From assembly GCA_004284765.1 (NCBI GenBank), contig NQJD01000040.1, forward strand, positions 1 to 21,875: DNA of 21,875 bases, in the 5' to 3' direction. Origin of the DNA: Candidatus Electronema aureum (GTDB lineage Bacteria; Desulfobacterota; Desulfobulbia; Desulfobulbales; Desulfobulbaceae). The notes below the pieces were generated by a model, which saw only the letters and a list, made by a program, of their open reading frames with translations, made no database searches and was not told the DNA's origin. This document shows, one piece after another, positions 184 through 21,552 of the stretch. Numbering within the stretch: position 1 is the first letter of the stretch; the number at the start of each line of letters is the position of its first letter. Position numbers and translations under genes: made by a program.

Positions 184-1536
184 ATGCTGTGGAACACTGT
201 CAAAAAGACTTTATGCGCCGCACTCCCTGAAAGCGAGTACAGTCTCTGGATTCAACCCATAGTCTGTGTGCGGGAAACCAGCCAAGTATTGGAAATCGCT
301 TGTCCAGACCGCTTTTTCTGTGCTTGGATCAAAGATCGCTACTTAAAGCTGATTGAAGCTAGCCTTGGCAGCTTGACCGGTAGTCCGCCAGCCATTTCTC
401 TGACTGTTTCTGCTACTGTCGCACCTGTTCCTCAGCCAGAGCAGAATGGCTCTGGACAACTGCGCTTGCCGGGTCTGCCTCGCTTCAAGGCCACTGTCCG
501 CTCACTGCATCCTGGCTACACCTTTGAACAATTTATGGTCGGTGATTCAAACTTAATGGCGCGCGCTGCTTGCCGGGCTATTGCTGATGCTGATCCTGCT
601 TTTGGCAACAGTCTTTTTCTCACCTCCAGTACTGGTCTGGGCAAAAGTCATCTGACTCAGGCAGTGGTGCATCAGGTGATGAACAGTGCACCGCAGACTC
701 GGATGCACTATCTCACTGCCCAGCAATTTTCAGCAGAAATGGTGAAGTGCATCCGCGAGAACACAATGGAGCAATTCTCCGGCAAGTTCATTCAAGGCTG
801 TGATTTACTCTTGGTTGAGGATGTTCACACCTTGAGCGGCAAGACCAAGACCCAAGAAGAGCTGAACAACATTCTCGATTATCTGATTAAAGCAGGAAAA
901 CGAGTTATTCTGACTTCAGCAGTAGCCCCACGCTCGTTGAACGGTGTAGATGAGGATTTTCGTTCCCGCATGACTTCTGGCTTGGTTACGGACATTAAGG
1001 CCCCAGAATACAACACCAGGGCCGCAATCATCCGGCACAAGGCCGCTGGGAGCCGCTTACCCTTGGCAGACGAGCATATTCATCTCTTAGCCGAGCATCT
1101 TCAGGGTGACATTCGCCGAATTGAAAATGCGGTACTGGGCCTGCGGGCCAAGGCGAGCCTCTATAATGCGCCGTTAGACACCGACATGGTGCGTGAGGTG
1201 CTGGAGGGCTTAGTCAGTCTTGATTTGAGCAACCGGAAAAACCTCAGCGGTGAATCCATCCGTGAACTCGTGAGCAGCCAATTTCGGGTCTCGATTGATG
1301 AATTAGTCTCTCGCTCCCGCAAGCGTAACGTAACTTTTCCTCGGCAGATCGCTATGTATCTGACCAGAAAATATACCGAACAGTCTTTAGCAAACATCGG
1401 CAATCTGTACCAGCGCGATCATTCCACCGTGCTGTATGCGATCAAAACGGTCAGTCGTGACATTGTTCAGAAAAGCAGCGTTCGGCAGCAGGTGGAAATG
1501 TTGACGGATAAGCTGAGTACTCCTGATGCAAATTAA
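184..1536 (+). CDS. dnaA: Chromosomal replication initiator protein DnaA
   Basis: 450-aa ORF with an AAA+ Walker A 'SSTGLGKSHL' and Walker B-like 'LLLVEDVH'. The C-terminal DNA-binding helix region 'RQIAMYLTRKYT..SLANIG..YQRDHSTVLYA' is typical of DnaA domain IV. Confidence 0.95.
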   Translation: MLWNTVKKTLCAALPESEYSLWIQPIVCVRETSQVLEIACPDRFFCAWIKDRYLKLIEASLGSLTGSPPAISLTVSATVAPVPQPEQNGSGQLRLPGLPRFKATVRSLHPGYTFEQFMVGDSNLMARAACRAIADADPAFGNSLFLTSSTGLGKSHLTQAVVHQVMNSAPQTRMHYLTAQQFSAEMVKCIRENTMEQFSGKFIQGCDLLLVEDVHTLSGKTKTQEELNNILDYLIKAGKRVILTSAVAPRSLNGVDEDFRSRMTSGLVTDIKAPEYNTRAAIIRHKAAGSRLPLADEHIHLLAEHLQGDIRRIENAVLGLRAKASLYNAPLDTDMVREVLEGLVSLDLSNRKNLSGESIRELVSSQFRVSIDELVSRSRKRNVTFPRQIAMYLTRKYTEQSLANIGNLYQRDHSTVLYAIKTVSRDIVQKSSVRQQVEMLTDKLSTPDAN

Positions 1537-1632
1537 GAGTAGGCCGATTGCTCCCCAAGAGGCCTCCAAATCATTCCACCTGCAAATCCAACCCTTTTTC
1601 ACCCTATTTAGCATTTTCTCCGCAGCTCGCCC

Positions 1633-1661
1633 TTGACGAAGAGCTGTTCATTGATTAATAC
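1633..1661 (+). promoter_or_regulatory. Putative sigma70 promoter for tRNA-Leu
   Basis: TTGACG (1633-1638), 17-nt spacer, TAATAC (1656-1661). It ends 16 nt upstream of the tRNA 5' end. Confidence 0.4.
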
Positions 1662-1677
1662 TAGAGAATTAACGCGA

Positions 1678-1763
1678 GCGAGAGTGGCGAAACTGGCAGA
1701 CGCACTGGACTTAGGATCCAGCGCACCTAGTGTGTAGGGGTTCAAATCCCCTCTCTCGCACCA
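1678..1763 (+). tRNA. tRNA-Leu (anticodon TAG), type II with long variable arm, encoded CCA
   Basis: Hand-folded cloverleaf. The acceptor stem is GCGAGAG/CTCTCGC, the anticodon stem-loop is CTGGA-CTTAGGA-TCCAG, the T-arm is AGGGG-TTCAAAT-CCCCT, and the 3' end is ACCA. Confidence 0.9.
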
Positions 1764-1884
1764 TTTTCTTCAACAACACGATCCCATATTCAGGAGACGG
1801 GCAGCAGAGGATAACCAATGCTCCTGCCTGGATTGAGATAACTTCTGCCCAGGGCAGGCAATCCGAACTAAGGAATTTGAGTCG

Positions 1885-3216
1885 ATGGAAATAGCAGTCG
1901 AAGAACTGAGCGAATTGACCCGGAAGCTGACTGTCACCGTGCCTGCGGAGGACGTACAGAAGGAGCTTAACACTGCCTATGGCAAGCTGAAAAAGGATGT
2001 TCATCTCAAGGGATTTCGCAAGGGCAAGGCTCCCATGTCCATTCTAGAGAAGAACTACGGGGACAGGGTACAGGCTGAAGTTGCTGAGAAGCTGGTGCAG
2101 GACACCTATTTCGACGCAGTGGAGCAGAAAGAGTTGGATGTGGTGGTTCATCCTGAAATCCGTGAGACGAGTTTTGCGGATGATGGTACGTTTGTTTATG
2201 TCGCCTTAGTTGATGTCAAACCAGTATTCGAGATAAGCCAGTACAAGGGTTTGGAGATAGAGAAGCCTGCGATCAAAGTAACTGATGCTGATGTTGATCG
2301 TAAGCTGGAAGAACTGCGGCGCAACCATGCTGTGCTCAGAACCGCTGCTGACGATCATGGCGTGGCTGAGGATGACATCGTTACGGTTGATTTCCAAGGC
2401 TTCCACAACGAGAAGCCGATGAAGGAAGTGCATAACGAGAATTATTCTATCGACGTAGGTGCCAAGCGGCTGGGTGCGGAGTTTGAAGAGCAACTCACTG
2501 GTCTGAAGAAAGGTGAGTCTGCCCTCTACGAGACTGAGTTTCCTGCTGACTATCCTAACCCGGTAATGGCAGGTAAGACCATTGAGTTCAAGGTTGATGT
2601 CAAAGAGATCAAGGAACGGATCAAGCCTGCCCTTGATGATGAGTTTGCCAAAGATGTTGATGCGAAATATAGCAGTCTTGCTGATCTGCGGGCAGATATA
2701 GCGGAAGAGCTGCGCAAGCAGCGGGAAGCTGCCCAAGAAGGAGACTTGGCTGACCGTCTGATGCAAAAGCTAATCGCCATGAATCAATTCCCGGTGCCGG
2801 AACGGGCGGTGAACTACGAGATTCAGGAGATGATTAATCAGACCGAGGAGCGGCTGAAGCGCACTGGTCTGACCTTGGAGACTGCTGGTCTCAAGCGCGA
2901 AGAGCTGGCCAAGCAGCACCATGAGTCGGCGGAGAAGCGGGTATGTGGTGACTTCCTGCTCAAGAAAGTAGCCGAGCTGGAAGAAATCAAGCTGGCGGAC
3001 GAGGACATCGAGCGCGGCTATCAGCGCATCGCCATGCAGTACAAGATGACTGTGCCGGAAGTGAAGCAATATTTCCAGCGGCGTGAGGAGATCATGCCCT
3101 TCCTTGCCGAACTGCTGAACGAGAAAATCCTCCGCTTCCTGCTCGACGCGGCCAAGATCACCGAGGCGCAGGCGGCGGCAATGGAAGAGGAAGCTGCGGA
3201 AGCGCAGCAGGCATAG
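1885..3216 (+). CDS. tig: Trigger factor (ribosome-associated peptidyl-prolyl isomerase chaperone)
   Basis: 443-aa ORF whose N-terminus 'MEIAVEELSELTRKLTVTVPAEDV' and 'GFRKGKAP' ribosome-binding signature are typical of Tig. It sits in the conserved tig-clpP-clpX arrangement. Confidence 0.93.
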   Translation: MEIAVEELSELTRKLTVTVPAEDVQKELNTAYGKLKKDVHLKGFRKGKAPMSILEKNYGDRVQAEVAEKLVQDTYFDAVEQKELDVVVHPEIRETSFADDGTFVYVALVDVKPVFEISQYKGLEIEKPAIKVTDADVDRKLEELRRNHAVLRTAADDHGVAEDDIVTVDFQGFHNEKPMKEVHNENYSIDVGAKRLGAEFEEQLTGLKKGESALYETEFPADYPNPVMAGKTIEFKVDVKEIKERIKPALDDEFAKDVDAKYSSLADLRADIAEELRKQREAAQEGDLADRLMQKLIAMNQFPVPERAVNYEIQEMINQTEERLKRTGLTLETAGLKREELAKQHHESAEKRVCGDFLLKKVAELEEIKLADEDIERGYQRIAMQYKMTVPEVKQYFQRREEIMPFLAELLNEKILRFLLDAAKITEAQAAAMEEEAAEAQQA

Positions 3217-3243
3217 GCCGGAACCCTTTATTTTGTCTATGAG

Positions 3244-3274
3244 CCGGACAGACTGCTGTCCGGTTTTTTGTTTT
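3244..3274 (+). terminator. Rho-independent terminator after tig
   Basis: Stem CCGGACAG (3244-3251) / CTGTCCGG (3256-3263) with loop ACTG, followed by TTTTTTGTTTT. Confidence 0.7.
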
Positions 3275-3285
3275 AAGGAGCGATC

Positions 3286-3882
3286 ATGAATCTTGTGCCA
3301 ATGGTGGTTGAGCAGAGTCCGCGCGGCGAGCGGGCTTTTGACATTTACTCGCGCCTGCTGCGGGAGCGCATCGTCTTTCTCGGCACGCCGGTAAACGACG
3401 ATGTTTCCAGCCTGATTGTCGCCCAGCTGCTGTTTCTCGAAGCGGACGACCCGGACAAGGACATCACCTTCTACATCAACTCGCCCGGCGGCTCTGTCAC
3501 CGCAGGCATGGCCATTTACGACACCATGCAGTACATCCGCTGCGACGTGGCCACGCTCTGCATGGGCCAGGCGGCCTCAATGGGCGCGTTCCTGCTGGCT
3601 GCCGGCGCGGCGGGCAAACGCTATGCCTTGCCCAACTCGCGGATCATGATTCATCAGCCGATGGGCGGCTATCAGGGCCAAGCCACGGACATTGAGATTC
3701 ATGCCAAAGAAATTCTGCGGATGCGGGCTGATCTCAACACCATTTTGGCCAAACACACCGGCAAGCCGGTCAAGCAGATCGAGCAGGACACTGAGCGCGA
3801 CAACTTCATGGCCGCGCCGGAAGCGAAAGAATACGGCCTGATTGACAAGGTGCTGGAGCGCAGGGAGGAGGCCAAGGCATGA
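3286..3882 (+). CDS. clpP: ATP-dependent Clp protease proteolytic subunit ClpP
   Basis: 198-aa ORF with AAGGAG RBS at 3275-3280. Motifs 'RIVFLG..V.D', '[18 protein letters not shown]', '[14 protein letters not shown]' (catalytic Ser) and 'IMIHQP' (catalytic His) are present. Confidence 0.97.
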
Positions 3883-5156
3883 GCGACGAACTGACCGGCA
3901 GCTCCGCTGGCTCGCGCGCCTGCTCCTTCTGCGGTCGGGACGAGGCAGAAGTGGCGCGGCTGATTGCCGGGCCGGATGTCTATATTTGCAGCGAGTGCGT
4001 GGAAATCTGCAACGGGATGATCAAAGAGCCTGCTGACGGCGCGGCCCAGCCTGCGGCGGTCGAGCCGCCCAGCCTGCTCAAGCCCAAGGAGATTCACGCC
4101 CATTTGAATGATTACGTCATCGGCCAAGACTACGCCAAGCGGGTGCTGGCCGTGGCGGTGCATAATCATTACAAGCGGATCAGCTCCCGCATCGCTGGCA
4201 AGGGCGATGTGAACGCGGTGGAAATTCAGAAATCCAACATCGTTCTGATCGGCCCGACCGGCAGCGGCAAGACCCTGCTCGCGCAGACCTTGGCCCGCGT
4301 CCTCAACGTACCCTTCAGCATCGCCGACGCGACCACGCTGACTGAGGCGGGTTATGTCGGCGACGACGTGGAGACCATCCTTGTCGGCCTGCTTCAGGCG
4401 GCAGACTACGACGTGGAACGGGCGCAGCGCGGCATTGTCTATATTGACGAGATCGACAAAATCGCCCGCAAGTCCGACTCGCCCTCGCTGACCCGCGACG
4501 TGTCCGGCGAAGGCGTGCAGCAGGCCCTGCTCAAGATGATCGAGGGCACCACCGCCTCAGTGCCGCCCAAAGGCGGACGCAAGCATCCGCAGCAGGATTT
4601 GATCAAGATTGACACCACCGACATTCTTTTCATCGTCGGCGGGGCGTTTGTCGGCTTGGACAAGGTGATCAAGCGGCGCGGCGGCAAGAAGTCCATCGGC
4701 TTCGGCGCGAAAATCCACTTGGATAAGGAGAAGAGCGAGGGCGATCTGCTGGCTGAAGTGCAGCCGGAAGACCTGCTCAAGTTCGGCCTGATCCCGGAGC
4801 TGGTGGGCCGTCTGCCGGTCATTGCGCCGATGCGCGAGCTGCGCGAGGAGGACTTGATCCGCATCCTCAAGGAGCCGAAGAACGCCCTGACCAAGCAATA
4901 TATGAAGCTCTTCGAGCTGGAAGGCATCACGCTTCGCTTCACCGAAGAGGCCCTGAACGCCGCAGCCAAAAAGGCGCTGGAGCGCAAGGCCGGGGCGCGC
5001 GGGCTGCGCTCGGTGATGGAAAGCGCGATGCTCGATGTGATGTACGAGCTGCCCTCGGATGACTATGCGGTGGAATGCGTGATCAGCGAGGAGGTGATCA
5101 GCAAAGGCGAGCAGCCTGCTGTGACCCGCGATGAGAAGCGGCGGAAAGCGGCGTGA
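3879..5156 (+). CDS. clpX: ATP-dependent Clp protease ATP-binding subunit ClpX
   Basis: 425-aa ORF whose start overlaps the clpP stop as ATGA. It has an N-terminal C4 zinc finger 'CSFCG...CSEC', Walker A 'GPTGSGKT', Walker B 'IVYIDEIDK' and a C-terminal 'GARGLRS' motif. Confidence 0.97.
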
Positions 5157-6361: not shown

Positions 6362-7405
6362 TCACCCCTTCTTGCTGTGCAGGTCAAACGCCACCTCGTA
6401 GGACTTACCTTTCGCCAGCGCGGTCGCGGGCGGAACATACTTGAACAGCAACGCCGAGAACTCATACTCAAAATCCCCGACAAACTGCGGATCGTCATTG
6501 TTGACCGTAACTGTCCTGCCATTGACGCTGTGACTCGGCTGCGCGGCCTCGTGCCAATACTTGCTGATCACTCTGTCTGGGTAAAACGTCAACTGCCCTG
6601 TTTTCTGTCCATTCTGAAACTTCAGCGTGTCCGTCCGCGTTCGCTTAACCGTGCCGACCAGCCGGTACTCGCCGACCTTATATTCAATCTTGTCAAACAC
6701 CTCTCCGTCCGGGGGCTGGGCGAGGAAGTAGAACGGCTTGTTTTCCGTTTGCGTCCAGCCGCTGGTTCCATTTGTTTCCTCGTCCGGCTCCTGCACCCAG
6801 CCGGATGAGGAAGCTGCACCCGCTGCACTCTGCGGGTCGTTCTCAGGCTGCTTGCCCGCTGACTGCGCAGCAGCGGCGCGGGCAGCGTCAGCCTCGCTTC
6901 GCTCCAACGCCGCCACAATCTGCTCCGCTATCTTTGTAATAGCCTTGCGAAGCTGTGGCGAGGTAAATGGCTCATGGCGCAACTCCCTCCAGTCCGCATA
7001 CTGCCGGGCGGCGATAATCTGCGCCAGCGGGTCATGTTTCAGCTTCTCTTTGTCCTTCAGCACAGGACAGGTGGCATAATAGACCGGCAGAATCAAATCG
7101 CCTCGGCCCAGCTCCTCTTCCCGCTTGAGAAAACGCTCAAGCTCCGCACGGCAGGCGGTGCTTTTGAAGAATGCAGGCGTGATGATTGGTAGCAGAAAGG
7201 TGACGGCAGCAAGCGAGGTGTCCAGCCGCTCCTGCCACTGCTGGCCCCAGGCAATGTCCTTGCGGTCTTGAAAGATGTCGAACGCCTCGCCAGTCAGGAA
7301 ACGTACCTCGCCGCTCAAGCGTTCGCGGAACTGCGTCAAGTCCCCATAGTCATGCTGGTCGTTTAAATTCACATAGCTCAGAAAAGCAAGTGGTGTCCGG
7401 CTCAT
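6362..7405 (-). CDS. TIR-domain protein with low-complexity linker and unassigned beta-rich C-terminal domain
   Basis: 347-aa ORF with GGAGGA RBS 7 nt upstream. The N-terminal ~140 aa read as a TIR_2-type domain: 'LAFLSY....D', 'IFQDRKDIAWGQQW', 'LLPIITPAFFKSTACRAELERF'. An Ala/Ser/Gln-rich linker follows, then ~150 aa with no motif I recognise. Confidence 0.8.
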   Translation of the reverse strand: MSRTPLAFLSYVNLNDQHDYGDLTQFRERLSGEVRFLTGEAFDIFQDRKDIAWGQQWQERLDTSLAAVTFLLPIITPAFFKSTACRAELERFLKREEELGRGDLILPVYYATCPVLKDKEKLKHDPLAQIIAARQYADWRELRHEPFTSPQLRKAITKIAEQIVAALERSEADAARAAAAQSAGKQPENDPQSAAGAASSSGWVQEPDEETNGTSGWTQTENKPFYFLAQPPDGEVFDKIEYKVGEYRLVGTVKRTRTDTLKFQNGQKTGQLTFYPDRVISKYWHEAAQPSHSVNGRTVTVNNDDPQFVGDFEYEFSALLFKYVPPATALAKGKSYEVAFDLHSKKG

Positions 7406-7454
7406 CTCAACTTCCTCCGCAGCGGTGTTGGTTGTTTAGTCCTGCATCAGCCGT

Positions 7455-7483
7455 ATAATAACTGTGTTTCTGCCGCGCTGCAA
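7455..7483 (-). promoter_or_regulatory. Putative sigma70 promoter for the TIR gene
   Basis: On the minus strand: TTGCAG (7483-7478), 17-nt spacer, TATTAT (7460-7455). The same AT block reads TATAAT (7454-7459) on the plus strand with TTGTTT 16 nt upstream, so it may be bidirectional. Confidence 0.45.
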
Positions 7484-7508
7484 GCGGTTCAGATTGCGCT
7501 GCTGTTGG

Positions 7509-7623
7509 TGACAGCATGGTGTCATGATATGTGATAGCAGGCTGTCACTCTGAGCAACACTACGCTGTCACTTCCTGTGACACTATGCCGTCACCCTGAG
7601 TGACACTACGCTGTCACTGCACA
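7509..7623. repeat. Five head-to-tail 23-bp repeats, each with a GTGACA-N6-TGTCAC-type dyad
   Basis: Units read directly from the sequence: GACAGCATGGTGTCATGATATGT / GATAGCAGGCTGTCACTCTGAGC / AACACTACGCTGTCACTTCCTGT / GACACTATGCCGTCACCCTGAGT / GACACTACGCTGTCACTGCACAC. The period is exactly 23 bp and the array lies between divergent promoters. Confidence 0.85.
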
Positions 7624-7651
7624 CGCCACCGTAGTGGCACGACATGTCGTG
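7624..7651. promoter_or_regulatory. Two adjacent palindromes downstream of the repeat array
   Basis: GCCAC-CGTA-GTGGC (7624-7637) overlaps a perfect 16-bp palindrome GCACGACATGTCGTGC (7636-7651) that contains the same GACA/TGTC core. Confidence 0.6.
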
Positions 7652-7678
7652 CTCCTGCTCAAAAGGTCTGATAATCCT

Positions 7679-7707
7679 GTTGACAAATCATCTGGCGCGT
7701 CTTAGTT
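7679..7707 (+). promoter_or_regulatory. Putative sigma70 promoter for the HU-like/DUF4469-like gene
   Basis: TTGACA (7679-7684), 17-nt spacer, TAGTTT (7702-7707), about 60 nt upstream of the ATG at 7768. Confidence 0.4.
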
Positions 7708-7767
7708 TTGTCTTGATGCGCCACGACCTTCCTGCATCTCTTCCTTTCCTCTCACCGGAGAACAGTC

Positions 7768-8841
7768 ATGAGCATACAATATCGGATTGAACCGAATCCA
7801 CTCACCACGCCCCCATCCTACCGCATTCAAGCCGTGCCGCGCAACACCGCAGGCTATGCGGAGATGGCCGCTGACATCTCGTCGGCGCAGCCCATCTACA
7901 GTCCTGAGACCATCAGCAGCCTTGCCCCGCTGATCATGAAATGGATTCAGCAGCGGCTCATCAGCGGCGACAAAGTGACCTTGGAGGAGGCGTTCAGCTA
8001 CTATATCTCCTTCACCGGCAAGTTGGACAGCCCGGACGAGCCACTGCCAGAAGATGACGATATACTTCAGGTTAATGTGCGCGTGTCCCAGCCTTTTGTG
8101 AAAGAGATACGGCATCAGGCCAAACTTGAGCGGCTGCCCATGACCGAGAAGCTGCCCGTGATCACATCGACCGAGGACACCAAGCTCAAGCTGGCTGACG
8201 TGCTGTTCGCAGGTGGCGTGCTCAAGTTGACTGGCAGCAATCTCCTCTTTGATGAGAGCAGCCCGGACTGCGGTTGCGTGCTGGAAGGGACACGGAGCGG
8301 GCGGCAGAAGCAGAGCACCTACGCCTCGGTCGCCAACAGCGGCATACTGCTGGTGCCAGACATTCCTGTGCAGGATAATCCCTGGAATAACGAATACACG
8401 GTCACGCTCACCACCCAGTACAGCGAACACGGCACTCTGCGTAGCGGCACCAGCCGCCGGAAGCTGCGCTCGCCCCTGACCGTGCCGCTCTTCGGCCACC
8501 CGCATCCGCCAGAGACAGGGATACTGACCGGCAATGCCACTGCCCCGTATGTGAAGATCACTGGCGGCACGGTCTCAGCAGACGAAATGCTGCGCATTCA
8601 GGCGGTGATTGATTCCCGCAGCGGCCTGCTGCTGCTCAATTTGCTCGACATGGAAGAGGGCGGCAAGACAGGCGCGACTGTGACAGTCACCGCCAATGGG
8701 ACATACACCTTGGGCGGATTTGCAGGCTCGGCAGTGACCAGCTTAGAGCTGAAGGTGGAGAATCTTGCGGCGTTAGTCAGCCTGATCAGGAATAGCTATG
8801 CAGGCAGGATGGTGGATATTCTGGATATAAGTATGGCGTAA
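7768..8841 (+). CDS. HU-like (HU-HIG type) DNA-binding domain + DUF4469-like Ig-fold domain protein with ~110-aa unassigned C-terminal extension
   Basis: 357-aa ORF with GGAGA RBS. The N-terminus 'YRIEPNPLTTPPSYRIQAVPRNTAGYAEMAADIS....ETISSLAPLIMKWIQQRLISGDKVTLEEAFSYYISFTGKL' is followed by 'LPVITSTEDT...GGVLKLTGSNLLFDESSPDCGCVLE....ILLVPDIP....YTVTLTTQYS'. This matches my recollection of the Bacteroidota HU + DUF4469 architecture. I have not verified it by search. Confidence 0.6.
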   Translation: MSIQYRIEPNPLTTPPSYRIQAVPRNTAGYAEMAADISSAQPIYSPETISSLAPLIMKWIQQRLISGDKVTLEEAFSYYISFTGKLDSPDEPLPEDDDILQVNVRVSQPFVKEIRHQAKLERLPMTEKLPVITSTEDTKLKLADVLFAGGVLKLTGSNLLFDESSPDCGCVLEGTRSGRQKQSTYASVANSGILLVPDIPVQDNPWNNEYTVTLTTQYSEHGTLRSGTSRRKLRSPLTVPLFGHPHPPETGILTGNATAPYVKITGGTVSADEMLRIQAVIDSRSGLLLLNLLDMEEGGKTGATVTVTANGTYTLGGFAGSAVTSLELKVENLAALVSLIRNSYAGRMVDILDISMA

Positions 8842-19200: not shown

Positions 19201-21552
19201 TCAACCCTGATTTCGAGCTGCCTTATCGCAGACCCGGCAGACTTCGTTCTGCTCCCAGACCGGGCCGCTGGCAGTGTCATGCACGGTCACGCCCCGGCGG
19301 AGCAGCTCAGAGCGGGCCTCATCAGCAGCGGCCCAGTCCTTGCGGCGGCGGGCTTCCTCACGCTGCTGAATCAGGCGGTTGATCTCTGGGGCTAAGGCGC
19401 ATTCGTCCAAGCGGAGGAAGCCCAGCACCAGATTCATCCGGCGCAGGCAGGCAAAAACTTCATTCTTCTGCGCCAAATCGAGCGAACCGGCAATCAGGGC
19501 CGGGTTGGCTTTCTTGATGAACTCGAACAGCGCGCCGATGGCCCCGGAAATATTGAGGTCATCATTCATTGCGGCGGTGAACTGCTCCTCCAGCTCGGCG
19601 GTGAGCTGGCTGATCAAGCGGTGCGGCAGGCCCGGCGGCAGGCAGAGCAGCTTGCGGGTGAATTCATCAATCCGTTTTAGGGCGTTGCGGAAGGCATCGA
19701 GCTTGCGGTAGCTGAACTCGATGGACTTGCGGTAATGCACGCCCACGAGCATGAAACGAATCTCGCGCCCGGTGTAGCCTTTGTCCAGCACCTCTTGCAG
19801 CGTGACCACGTTGCCGGATTCCTGCGCCATCTTCTTGCCGTTGTGCAGCAGCAGGCCGGAATGCAGCCAATACTGCGCCAGCGGCTTGCCGGTCAGCGAC
19901 TCGGCAATGGCGATCTCGTTCTCGTGATGCGGGAAAAGCAGCTCTTGGCCGCCGGTGTGAATGTCAATGGTCTCGCCGAGATGCCGGGTGGACATGGCCG
20001 TACATTCGATATGCCAGCCGGGCCGCACATTGCCCCAGTCGGTGGCGAAAAAGATGCCTTTCTTCAGCTCGCCAAGTGTGGAACGCTTGAGCAGGGTGAA
20101 ATCACGGGGATTGTCCTTGTCGTAGTTGTCGAGATCAACCGTGCAGCCGGTCTGTATCTTGCTCAGGTCAATCCCGGACAGCCGCCTATATCGCTTGAAC
20201 TTCGAGATGTCGAAATAGATCGAGCCGTGCTTCTCGTAGGCATAGCCCTTGTGAATCAGCTTGTGGGCGATGTCAATCATCTCGGCCACCTGCTCTGAGG
20301 CACGCGGATAGCCGGAGAAGTCGTTGATGCCGAGGATGCCCATGGCCTCGCGGAAAAGGGAAATATGGCGTTCGGTGAAGGCGGCCAGCGGCTGCCCGGC
20401 TTTCTCCGCGCCAGCAATGGTTTTGTCGTCCAGATCAGTGAAATTCATCAACGACTGCACCTCGAAGCCGCTGAAGCGGAGATGGCGGATCATCAAGTCC
20501 GCTGCTGCCATGCGGCGGCAGTGCGCCAAGTTCGGCGGCTCGCAGGCAGTGGGGCCGCAGGCGTAGAAGGTCACGCTCTTCGCATCCGCCGGTTTGAAGA
20601 TCTCCTTCTTGCGGCTCATTGAGTTGTGATAGCGGATTTTCCCCTCCAGGCTTTCCTCCTTCTCCTTGCGGACAAAGAGCGTCGTGCTCAGGTAGCGTTC
20701 GCCGCCGTCCGGGAATATCGCCACCACGTAACTGTCTTTCACCTTGGCCGCCTGCTCCATCGCTGCAAACATCGCCGCGCCAGAACTCATGCCGACCAGA
20801 AGACCTTCGCGCTGGGCCAGCAGCCGGGCGGTGCGGAAGGCATCCTCATCCGCCACGTTGACAATCTGATGCGGCAGCGTCTTGTCAAAGATCTCTGGGC
20901 GGTAGGACTCCTTCATGTTCTTGAGGCCCTGAATCTTGTGCCCGTAGTACGGCTCCACCGCGACCACCCGCACGTCCGGGTGATGCTCGCGGAACCAGCG
21001 CGACAGCCCCATCGCCGTGCCCGACGTGCCCAGCGTGGTGACGATGTGTGTCACCTTGCCCTCGCTCTGCCGCCAGATTTCCGGGGCCGTGCTCTTGCAG
21101 TGCGCCTGCCAGTTGGCCGGGTTGTTGAACTGGTCGGTGAGGAAGTACAGCTCCGGCTGCGCCAGGGCGAGGGAGTAGGCTTTCTCAATCGCGCCGTCGG
21201 TGCTGCGGCGGGCCGGAGTGAGGATAAGTTCCGCGCCGTAGGCCCGCATGATCTGCCGCCGCTCCATGCTCGCTGACTCCGGCATGACGAGGCAGCAGCG
21301 GTAGCCCTTGGCCGCGCAGACCATCGCCAAGCCGATGCCGGTGTTGCCGCTGGTGGCTTCGAGCACGATCTTGTCCGGGGTCAGCAGGCCGCTTTCCTCT
21401 CCGGTCTCGATCATGTTCAGCGCGGGCCGGTCTTTCACCGAGCCGCCGGGGTTCATGGCTTCGAGCTTGGCGAAGATCGCGCCGCCTTCAGGCGATGCCA
21501 GCCGCCGCAGCGGGACTATGGGCGTGTTGCCGATCAGGGAGAGGAGGTTCAT
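19201..21552 (-). CDS. Fusion protein: PLP-dependent cysteine synthase (CysK/CysM-like) + full-length cysteinyl-tRNA synthetase-like module with non-canonical HIGH/KMSKS motifs
   Basis: Continuous 783-aa ORF. The N-terminal ~300 aa carry 'IGNTPIVPL', 'NPGGSVKDR' (PLP Lys), 'TSGNTGIGLA' and 'GHKIQG'. The C-terminal ~470 aa align by eye to E. coli CysRS, with 'FYACGPT', 'RPGWHIECTAM', 'IHTGGQELLFPHHENEIA', 'DDLNISGA' and the C-terminal 'LIQQREEARRRKDWAAADEAR'. HIGH reads NLAH and KMSKS reads KMAQE. Confidence 0.85.
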   Translation of the reverse strand: MNLLSLIGNTPIVPLRRLASPEGGAIFAKLEAMNPGGSVKDRPALNMIETGEESGLLTPDKIVLEATSGNTGIGLAMVCAAKGYRCCLVMPESASMERRQIMRAYGAELILTPARRSTDGAIEKAYSLALAQPELYFLTDQFNNPANWQAHCKSTAPEIWRQSEGKVTHIVTTLGTSGTAMGLSRWFREHHPDVRVVAVEPYYGHKIQGLKNMKESYRPEIFDKTLPHQIVNVADEDAFRTARLLAQREGLLVGMSSGAAMFAAMEQAAKVKDSYVVAIFPDGGERYLSTTLFVRKEKEESLEGKIRYHNSMSRKKEIFKPADAKSVTFYACGPTACEPPNLAHCRRMAAADLMIRHLRFSGFEVQSLMNFTDLDDKTIAGAEKAGQPLAAFTERHISLFREAMGILGINDFSGYPRASEQVAEMIDIAHKLIHKGYAYEKHGSIYFDISKFKRYRRLSGIDLSKIQTGCTVDLDNYDKDNPRDFTLLKRSTLGELKKGIFFATDWGNVRPGWHIECTAMSTRHLGETIDIHTGGQELLFPHHENEIAIAESLTGKPLAQYWLHSGLLLHNGKKMAQESGNVVTLQEVLDKGYTGREIRFMLVGVHYRKSIEFSYRKLDAFRNALKRIDEFTRKLLCLPPGLPHRLISQLTAELEEQFTAAMNDDLNISGAIGALFEFIKKANPALIAGSLDLAQKNEVFACLRRMNLVLGFLRLDECALAPEINRLIQQREEARRRKDWAAADEARSELLRRGVTVHDTASGPVWEQNEVCRVCDKAARNQG

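Follow-up and report, generated by a model that had tools for sequence, protein, structure and literature searches.

The DNA analysed here is a contig of 21,875 nucleotides from the cable bacterium Candidatus Electronema aureum (NQJD01000040.1 of assembly GCA_004284765.1, positions 1 to 21,875), hereafter the window, and coordinates without a prefix are positions on this 21.9-kb stretch. Upstream of a gene for a 357-aa HU-HIG-like/DUF4469 (Ig) protein (7768-8841, forward strand; HU-Ig below), the window carries an array of 18-bp palindromes repeated at an exact period of 23 bp. The reading that we prefer, to which we give about an even chance, is that the adjacent HU-Ig protein binds this array cooperatively as its phased cognate operator. 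It is preferred because the arrays at paralogous loci have private sequences, the 23-bp phase is strict, the promoter lies at a fixed register, the units were rewritten symmetrically in an ortholog, and satellite arrays match the master type. We infer from these features that the adjacent protein would be the binder, that its binding would be cooperative, and that it would act by either repression or activation.

Structure of the palindrome array

Reading of the region 7200-7900 placed 18-bp dyads at 7508, 7531, 7554, 7577 and 7600, each followed by a 5-bp linker, with a consensus unit of GTGACA-CTAYGC-TGTCAC. Five 23-bp units with GTGACA-N6-TGTCAC dyads had been reported in a sequence-only reading of the window, and they were recovered here from the sequence, by pattern search and by Tandem Repeats Finder (TRF). 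A search for GTGACANNNNNNTGTCAC with up to two mismatches returned these five sites in the window and no others, against 0.61 expected from dinucleotide shuffles, and TRF and a repeat finder both detected the period-23 array.

Unit 5 (7600-7617, GTGACActacgcTGTCAC; GTGACA-ctacgc-TGTCAC) is a perfect dyad. The others are unit 4 (7577-7594, GTGACActatgcCGTCAC; GTGACA-ctatgc-cGTCAC), unit 3 (7554-7571, GcaACActacgcTGTCAC; GcaACA-ctacgc-TGTCAC), which has the most degenerate left arm, unit 2 (7531-7548, GTGAtAgcaggcTGTCAC; GTGAtA-gcaggc-TGTCAC) and unit 1 (7508-7525, GTGACAgcatggTGTCAt; GTGACA-gcatgg-TGTCAt), which is inverted relative to units 3-5 as judged by its central hexamer. The units had been described as head-to-tail; the exact period stands, while the uniform orientation does not, given the inversion of unit 1. 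Orientation is mixed across the array and phase is strict. It had also been proposed that the 23-bp spacing puts successive sites on the same face of the helix, which holds approximately only, as each unit adds a rotation of ~70 degrees at 10.5 bp per turn. The unique spacers between repeats that characterise a CRISPR (clustered regularly interspaced short palindromic repeats) array are absent from this array, in which the units are contiguous apart from the 5-bp linkers.

The two further elements reported downstream of unit 5, GCCAC-N4-GTGGC and a perfect 16-bp palindrome, are both present. The first (7625-7638) lies inside the next slot in phase (7623-7640), which matches the consensus at 13 of 18 positions when read in reverse and is occupied by a full unit in the closest ortholog at genome level, from a second genome (G001). 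By phase and sequence, GCCAC-N4-GTGGC belongs to the array as its sixth unit, which is degenerate and inverted. The dyad of the 16-bp palindrome (GCACGACATGTCGTGC, 7637-7652) falls out of the array register by 11.5 bp, exactly half a period, and is located ~70 bp before the predicted start site.

Promoter position and register

A predicted promoter of the HU-Ig gene lies on the forward strand at 7680-7708, with a -35 box TTGACA (7680-7685), a 17-bp spacer and a -10 box TAGTTT (7703-7708), and the Shine-Dalgarno sequence GGAGAA of the gene is at 7757-7762 on the same strand. The six array units end 40 bp upstream of the -35 box, and the array is therefore outside the predicted transcript of the gene. 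The promoter call rests on conservation across 48 family loci from this genome and its relatives. An exact TTGACA is located 77-110 nt (mode 89) before the ATG in 42 of the 48 upstream regions, and TAnnnT follows 17 bp after it in 41 of those 42. A generic scan of 7300-7900 returned no terminator-like site and no promoter, the latter because the -10 box TAGTTT and both -35 boxes of the left flank considered below score only 3/6.

The common layout in the family is a private 23-bp palindrome array, TTGACA-N17-TAnnnT, a leader of ~60 nt, GGAG and ATG, so that multiple phased repeats stand upstream of the promoter of the presumed binder's gene, as in an operator array. A cooperative operator of non-CRISPR type, one of the options raised in the sequence-only reading, fits an array upstream of a conserved sigma-70-type promoter in mostly fixed register, a layout that recurs at most paralogs.

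The register was measured by phase-summed scoring, as strict palindrome-run detection misses degenerate units. Measured from a dyad centre to the first base of the -35 box, the distance modulo 23 is 2-4 bp for most of the independent array types; the absolute distances are 26, 48, 49, 71, 94, 95, 141 and 209 bp. If the array of the window were continued in phase, its virtual eighth unit would occupy 7669-7686, and the right-arm slot of that unit would coincide with the -35 box to within 1 bp. In ortholog L035, array and promoter are ~138 bp, or six periods, further apart than in the window, and the register is kept (209 = 9 x 23 + 2). The fixed register could reflect selection for helical phase, or it could arise if length changes were mostly gains and losses of whole units. 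A second register class among the array types is shifted by half a period, 11.5 bp; this is also the offset of the 16-bp palindrome in the window.

In the mechanism that we propose, the 357-aa protein would act as a dimer that recognises an 18-bp palindrome, and cooperative binding every 23 bp would give rise to a nucleoprotein filament with about one superhelical turn per five units on B-DNA. The filament would reach the -35 box in fixed register and would control the protein's own promoter (7680-7708), and probably also the divergent promoter to the left. Each paralog would read a private palindrome, and array and protein would change together through concerted evolution of all units. From time to time a whole array would be copied into another intergenic region, and the same protein could then act there as well.

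Arrangements of this kind are known from ParR/parC in type II plasmid partition and from the omega repressor of pSM19035 with its heptads, where small dimers coat phased short repeats at their own promoter, binding cooperatively, regulating themselves and forming superhelical nucleoprotein filaments; omega tolerates either repeat orientation. However, ParR and omega have ribbon-helix-helix folds and repeat periods of 7-20 bp, and are plasmid-borne, single-copy systems with a ParM or ParA partner, whereas here the fold is different, ~20 chromosomal paralogs have private 23-bp arrays, and there is no partition partner.

Private arrays at paralogous loci

Across the whole genome, TRF gave 57 rows at period 23, where the neighbouring periods 22 and 24 gave 4-10. 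Segments self-similar at lag 23 numbered 16 at a strict and 34 at a lenient setting, compared with 0-2 and 0-3, respectively, at other non-coding lags; lag 21, a multiple of three, gave 11 at the lenient setting. Other repeats in the TRF output are numerous arrays with a period of 65-67 (62 rows), which may be CRISPR, and leucine-rich-repeat-like coding repeats with a period of 69.

Most of the genome's arrays consist of a palindrome of ~18 bp and a linker of ~5 bp, with a unit sequence that differs from array to array. The genome has ~20 paralog loci of the 357-aa protein, which are 46-61% identical, and nearly all intact paralogs share the array-promoter-leader layout, each with a different palindrome. 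For example, the array of a sister paralog, GAGCATAG..CTATGCTC, is at C8:78890-79010 (the prefix C denotes a contig). Upstream of family genes, the maximum identity at lag 23 averages 0.57, compared with 0.32-0.36 for lags 19-27 and 0.34 for control upstream regions, and lag-23 identity exceeds the 95th percentile of the controls at 15 of 19 loci in this genome and 23 of 29 loci in relatives. About 50 arrays of at least 30 sequence types are spread over the chromosome, with 1-8 arrays and 1-7 satellites per type; types were assigned by consensus-unit matching, which is imperfect for arrays with alternating unit orientation.

This distribution bears on the idea that the repeats are replication-origin iterons or a partition centromere. 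The repeats are tandem, phased, short and non-coding, and dnaA (184-1536) is on the same contig. However, dnaA is 6 kb away, beyond tig-clpP-clpX and a VapBC pair, no ParA/ParM-type partner is adjacent, no homolog of the protein was found in the phage and plasmid collections, and the arrays are numerous, of many types and dispersed over the chromosome. As no Rep initiator is adjacent either, the resemblance to iterons suggested in the sequence-only reading finds no support in the replication sense, and we consider an origin or centromere function extremely improbable.

Evolution of the array in orthologs

The GTGACA/TGTCAC arms and the phase are kept in orthologs L037, L035, L067 and L069 (91, 89, 83 and 77% protein identity, respectively), where the central hexamers, the linkers and the number of units (5-6) drift. 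Orthologs L035, L067 and L069 retain altered versions of the 16-bp palindrome, which L037 and L006 lack, and GCCAC-N4-GTGGC is not conserved as such among orthologs. The array is thus present at the orthologous loci down to 77% identity, and at the syntenic 74% ortholog in G001 its units are rewritten. This array has six units, all of the form GAGAC-N8-GTCTC, and the arm changes relative to the window are symmetric (T2>A with A17>T), occur in every unit and involve no indel. On this comparison, the rewriting of the G001 array is concerted, dyad-preserving evolution.

One metagenome contig (L068, an 81% ortholog) is a natural chimera, in which the promoter, an array of TCACTCGCTCGAGTGA type and the first ~30 residues derive from the L008 lineage and everything after them in the gene from the window lineage. 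This pairing would be expected if the basic N-terminal hairpin of the protein determined specificity; linkage explains it equally, because the codons for those residues adjoin the array. A search for specificity residues in the dN/dS profile (ratio of non-synonymous to synonymous rates) of window versus L006 found it flat, at 0.1-0.35, and the mosaic at L007 was uninformative on this point.

Satellite arrays

Arrays of the GTGACA type are also found away from any paralog. The satellite at C2:56303-56440 lies between two co-oriented genes resembling pyruvate carboxylase subunits, called pycA and pycB here from a reading of the gene sequences, without a domain search. An ungapped alignment of 115 nt with the window array gives 75% identity, and the linkers TCTGA and CCTGA follow in the same order; given that the ungapped identity includes the linkers, the satellite is therefore a copy by descent and not a convergent site. 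A shorter GTGACA-type copy is at C11:35995-36058. The sequence at C8:69115-69370 is a decayed duplicate of the TIR gene 5' end, the left flank and the array (array copy at C8:69265-69351), truncated after the array; it shares post-array sequence with orthologs L035 and L067. In G001, the satellites at C35:27386-27472 and C87:25117-25272 carry GAGAC arms, and their positions are not orthologous to those of the satellites in the window genome. The satellites therefore match the master type of their own genome, GTGACA here and GAGAC in G001.

The pycA-pycB intergenic region (C2:56268-56497; loci L059-L066) is an insertion hot spot in the genus. G001 has nothing inserted there, six further species have unrelated inserts, and an eighth locus is too short to read. 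The inserts include a RAYT/IS200-type transposase-like gene in one species and HepT/MntA-type toxin-antitoxin-like genes in two, as read from the sequence, without a domain search.

Genome arrays are almost all intergenic and are often found directly after stop codons. Ten arrays of various types flank genes of an NB-ARC/TPR STAND family, mostly just 3', and others flank a TIR-NosD gene and a gene for a 927-aa restriction-modification methyltransferase-like protein (also read from sequence, no domain search). The STAND family is multi-copy, has N-termini with GGxQNIxQGD repeats, and includes copies at C59:5079-7223, C20:8624-10693, C9:59929-61287, C4:109274-111343 and C42:5739-7103.

These observations raise the alternative that the arrays are self-propagating repeats akin to repetitive extragenic palindromes (REP), bacterial interspersed mosaic elements (BIME) or the REPIN elements paired with RAYT transposases, with the HU-Ig protein as a maintenance or mobilisation partner and transcriptional control secondary. 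As in those systems, the units are extragenic and palindromic, occur in clusters and in both orientations, and have spread to unrelated places between genes; each sequence family is tied to a cognate gene flanked by its own repeats, as in REPIN-RAYT. Consistent with this are the copying of whole arrays, linkers included, to unrelated sites such as that on C2, the varied occupancy of the pycA-pycB site, the lack of conservation of satellite positions between species, and the clustering of arrays in variable regions near STAND NB-ARC/TPR, TIR and restriction-modification-like genes. However, copy number is very low, with 1-8 arrays per type against tens to hundreds for REP and REPIN families, and no Y1 (HUH) transposase is linked to the arrays. 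The adjacent gene encodes HU-Ig, in which no nuclease, transposase or recombinase domain is recognisable. Some satellites are plain segmental duplicates, as on C8, and arrays 3' of STAND genes may have been co-duplicated with them. The fixed register to a conserved downstream promoter points to a regulatory role; in this register and in their strict 23-bp phasing the arrays also differ from REP and REPIN elements. We therefore view self-propagation as the primary function as improbable.

The adjacent protein and the case against DNA binding

The 357-aa protein (predicted pI, isoelectric point, 5.2) has an extra C-terminal beta-rich domain. Residues 132-223 match DUF4469 (PF14734) above the gathering score (28.8 bits versus a cut-off of 22.6), while the match to HU-HIG (PF18291) is below it (19.1 versus 26.2 bits), though full length (1-121 versus 1-124/125), and several close homologs carry a precomputed PF18291 match. 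A profile of 65 homologs matches chain A of PDB entry 4FMR over residues 36-223 (E 7.8e-4). With an AlphaFold2 model of the protein (predicted local distance difference test score, pLDDT, 89), the top four Foldseek matches were 4FMR chains (E 3e-11); the template modelling (TM) score against 4FMR is only 0.25-0.38, as the domain arrangement differs. On the profile and model evidence, the protein belongs, as a remote member, to the Ig-fused HU-HIG clade (PF18291 + PF14734; Burroughs, Kaur, Zhang & Aravind 2017, PMC5499826).

Like 4FMR (Bacteroides vulgatus BVU_2165), the proteins have an HU-like N-terminal domain followed by a DUF4469 Ig-like domain, and like the Ig-fused clade they have expanded lineage-specifically into many fast-diverging paralogs without conserved operon partners. 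The family described here is instead found in cable bacteria (Desulfobulbaceae), not Bacteroidetes, and its proteins are ~100 aa longer, with the extra C-terminal domain. HU-HIG proteins in general show lineage-specific expansions and lack conserved operon partners (PMC5499826), and that account describes no upstream repeat arrays.

The HU-Ig family is present in all eight genomes of the genus examined (8/8), at 7-32 copies per genome, and in one of nine other genera of the family; the remaining eight of these genera gave no match, and neither did 12 genomes from other families of the order. Homologs are named Candidatus Electronema and Electrothrix. A profile search of 1.84 billion representatives gave 702 matches at E <=1e-3. 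One distant relative, L071, has an array of four to five 23-bp units of CCTGAC-ACTG-GTCAGG. Another, the 250-aa protein of L075 on a low-GC metagenome contig, has tandem 9-bp ACCGAGTAA repeats and an inverted copy ~130-250 nt upstream of its gene (locus ~1250-1370), and no 23-bp palindromes.

Several findings weigh against an operator read by the adjacent protein. The family is acidic, with a pI range of 4.6-6.2, and the segment at the position of the DNA-clamping arm of HU reads DSPDEPLPEDDD and is acidic as well; the only basic region of the 357-aa protein is the N-terminal beta-hairpin (residues 1-28). HU-HIG proteins have been argued to be unlikely sequence-specific transcription factors, and the Ig domain of 4FMR occupies the DNA saddle (PMC5499826). 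Palindrome geometry varies between paralogs (6-N6-6, 7-N2-7 and 5-N8-5), which is unexpected for one conserved dimer geometry. The array types (at least 30) outnumber the paralogs (~20), and a paralog-adjacent copy is known for only about half of the types, in an assembly that is 92% complete. The satellites lie outside promoter register, one of them inside a likely operon, and four of five distant relatives examined (all four low-GC) have no 23-bp arrays. Co-inheritance of array and gene is in addition expected from linkage alone.

Some of these points favour an alternative in which the arrays are functional cis-elements that are either structural or read by another factor, while the targets of the HU-Ig protein are proteins or RNA, which is what has been proposed for the Ig-fused members of HU-HIG. 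Structural variants of this idea include cruciform-prone or curved DNA and an upstream insulator or topological barrier for a promoter with a strong -35 and a weak -10 box. The acidic protein with its acidic 'arm' and the published argument against sequence-specific reading suit it, arm and spacer geometry that varies at constant period fits a structural need better than a single dimer geometry, and many of the arrays are found directly 3' of a gene or between two genes of the same direction. However, a purely structural role leaves unexplained why each paralog has a different, internally homogeneous sequence, why all units change jointly and symmetrically, and why the satellites in a genome are of its master type. 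Nor does any other gene accompany the arrays consistently, the left neighbours being variable. We judge such a role unlikely.

The left flank and neighbouring genes

The divergent neighbour of the array is a gene for a TIR_2-domain protein (6362-7405, reverse strand; Pfam). Between its start codon and unit 1, ~100 bp (7406-7505) form a conserved left flank, which is ~89% identical in the 74% ortholog, where synonymous sites in the gene are near saturation (dS ~0.96); the flank is therefore more conserved than synonymous sites. The left neighbour itself varies at the orthologous loci, where TIR-NosD/beta-helix or CN_hydrolase genes replace TIR_2, and the flank persists in spite of this (TIR-NosD in L037 and L069, CN_hydrolase in L035). 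It contains two overlapping candidate promoters, one leftward (-35 TTGCAG at 7483-7478, N17, -10 TATTAT at 7460-7455) and one rightward (TTGTTT at 7432-7437, N16, TATAAT at 7454-7459), and consensus alone does not choose between them. The TATAAT at 7454-7459 had been noted in the sequence-only reading, which proposed that the array is transcribed from it into four to five tandem hairpins recalling type III toxin-antitoxin loci.

A rightward transcript from TTGTTT-N16-TATAAT (7432-7459) is a candidate that would make the array a structured RNA, either a small RNA (sRNA) or type III antitoxin-like. Its TATAAT is at consensus, with a -35 box of 3/6, lies 50 bp upstream of unit 1 and is in the strongly conserved flank. 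The plus strand of 7500-7660 folds at -69.6 kcal/mol, with z = -4.2 relative to shuffles; this is not evidence for RNA, because such a fold is a trivial outcome of repeated palindromes, and the minus strand folds nearly as well. The predicted fold is one long inter-unit hairpin in place of the tandem hairpins. The dyad mismatches show no strand bias, G:U-compatible units being two on the plus and two on the minus strand. Other paralogs have no conserved promoter upstream of their arrays, and all share the downstream one. An Rfam scan of the window returned three tRNAs only and no match at the array, and the search of 7300-7900 gave no terminator-like site. Read on the other strand, the TATAAT becomes TATTAT with TTGCAG at 17 bp, a candidate TIR promoter. 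A structured RNA thus appears very unlikely.

The likeness to type III toxin-antitoxin systems (ToxIN, CptIN and TenpIN) is in the tandem short repeats immediately upstream of a protein gene. Here, the promoter lies between array and gene, no terminator is found there, the units are palindromic and in both orientations, and no ToxN-like endoribonuclease is present. As suspected from the sequence, the downstream protein is not ToxN-like, with no ToxN/AbiQ match in Pfam, PADLOC or NCBIfam and no CptN-like match. The iteron, CRISPR and type III toxin-antitoxin readings were not supported, as each fails a tested defining feature.

The window contig is chromosomal and carries dnaA, a tRNA gene, tig, clpP, clpX and the VapBC pair before TIR_2, the array and the 357-aa gene, which is followed downstream by methyltransferase, ARMT1-like and PP-loop genes. 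In 184-5156, dnaA is followed by the tRNA and tig-clpP-clpX, not by dnaN. An open reading frame of 783 aa (19201-21552, reverse strand) fuses PALP (cysteine-synthase-type, dependent on pyridoxal phosphate) to a complete class I cysteinyl-tRNA synthetase with tRNA-synt_1e, DALR_2 and CysS_C domains.

Implications

HU-HIG/DUF4469 proteins, for which a structure (4FMR) but no function is known, are a large family that diversifies rapidly; its only comparative study is the one that argued against sequence-specific DNA binding (PMC5499826). In our literature search, no paper naming DUF4469 was found, the titles and abstracts of the cable-bacteria literature made no mention of such repeats, and we found no published description of the 23-bp array rule. 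If the operator reading is untrue, the arrays would still be a kind of palindromic repeat, strictly phased at 23 bp, that has not been described and calls for a different explanation.

A broader possibility, which we put forward tentatively, is that each cable-bacterium genome holds 20-30 orthogonal protein-DNA 'address' pairs. The HU-Ig proteins would have rapidly re-assignable specificity, with private 18-bp palindromes in 23-bp arrays, concerted co-evolution of the two, and satellites seeded beside conflict genes of the STAND NB-ARC/TPR, TIR and restriction-modification-like kinds. If true, this would refute the published position that HU-HIG proteins are not readers of DNA sequence. The array layout gives a first testable clue to the role of the HU-Ig family. 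If each protein binds its own array only, the family would provide a natural library in which protein-operator pairs are orthogonal and built on an unusual fold, it would be a clear case of concerted co-evolution of protein and site, given the symmetric rewriting of every unit in the 74% ortholog, and a cable-bacterium-specific regulatory layer would lie beside defence and conflict genes.

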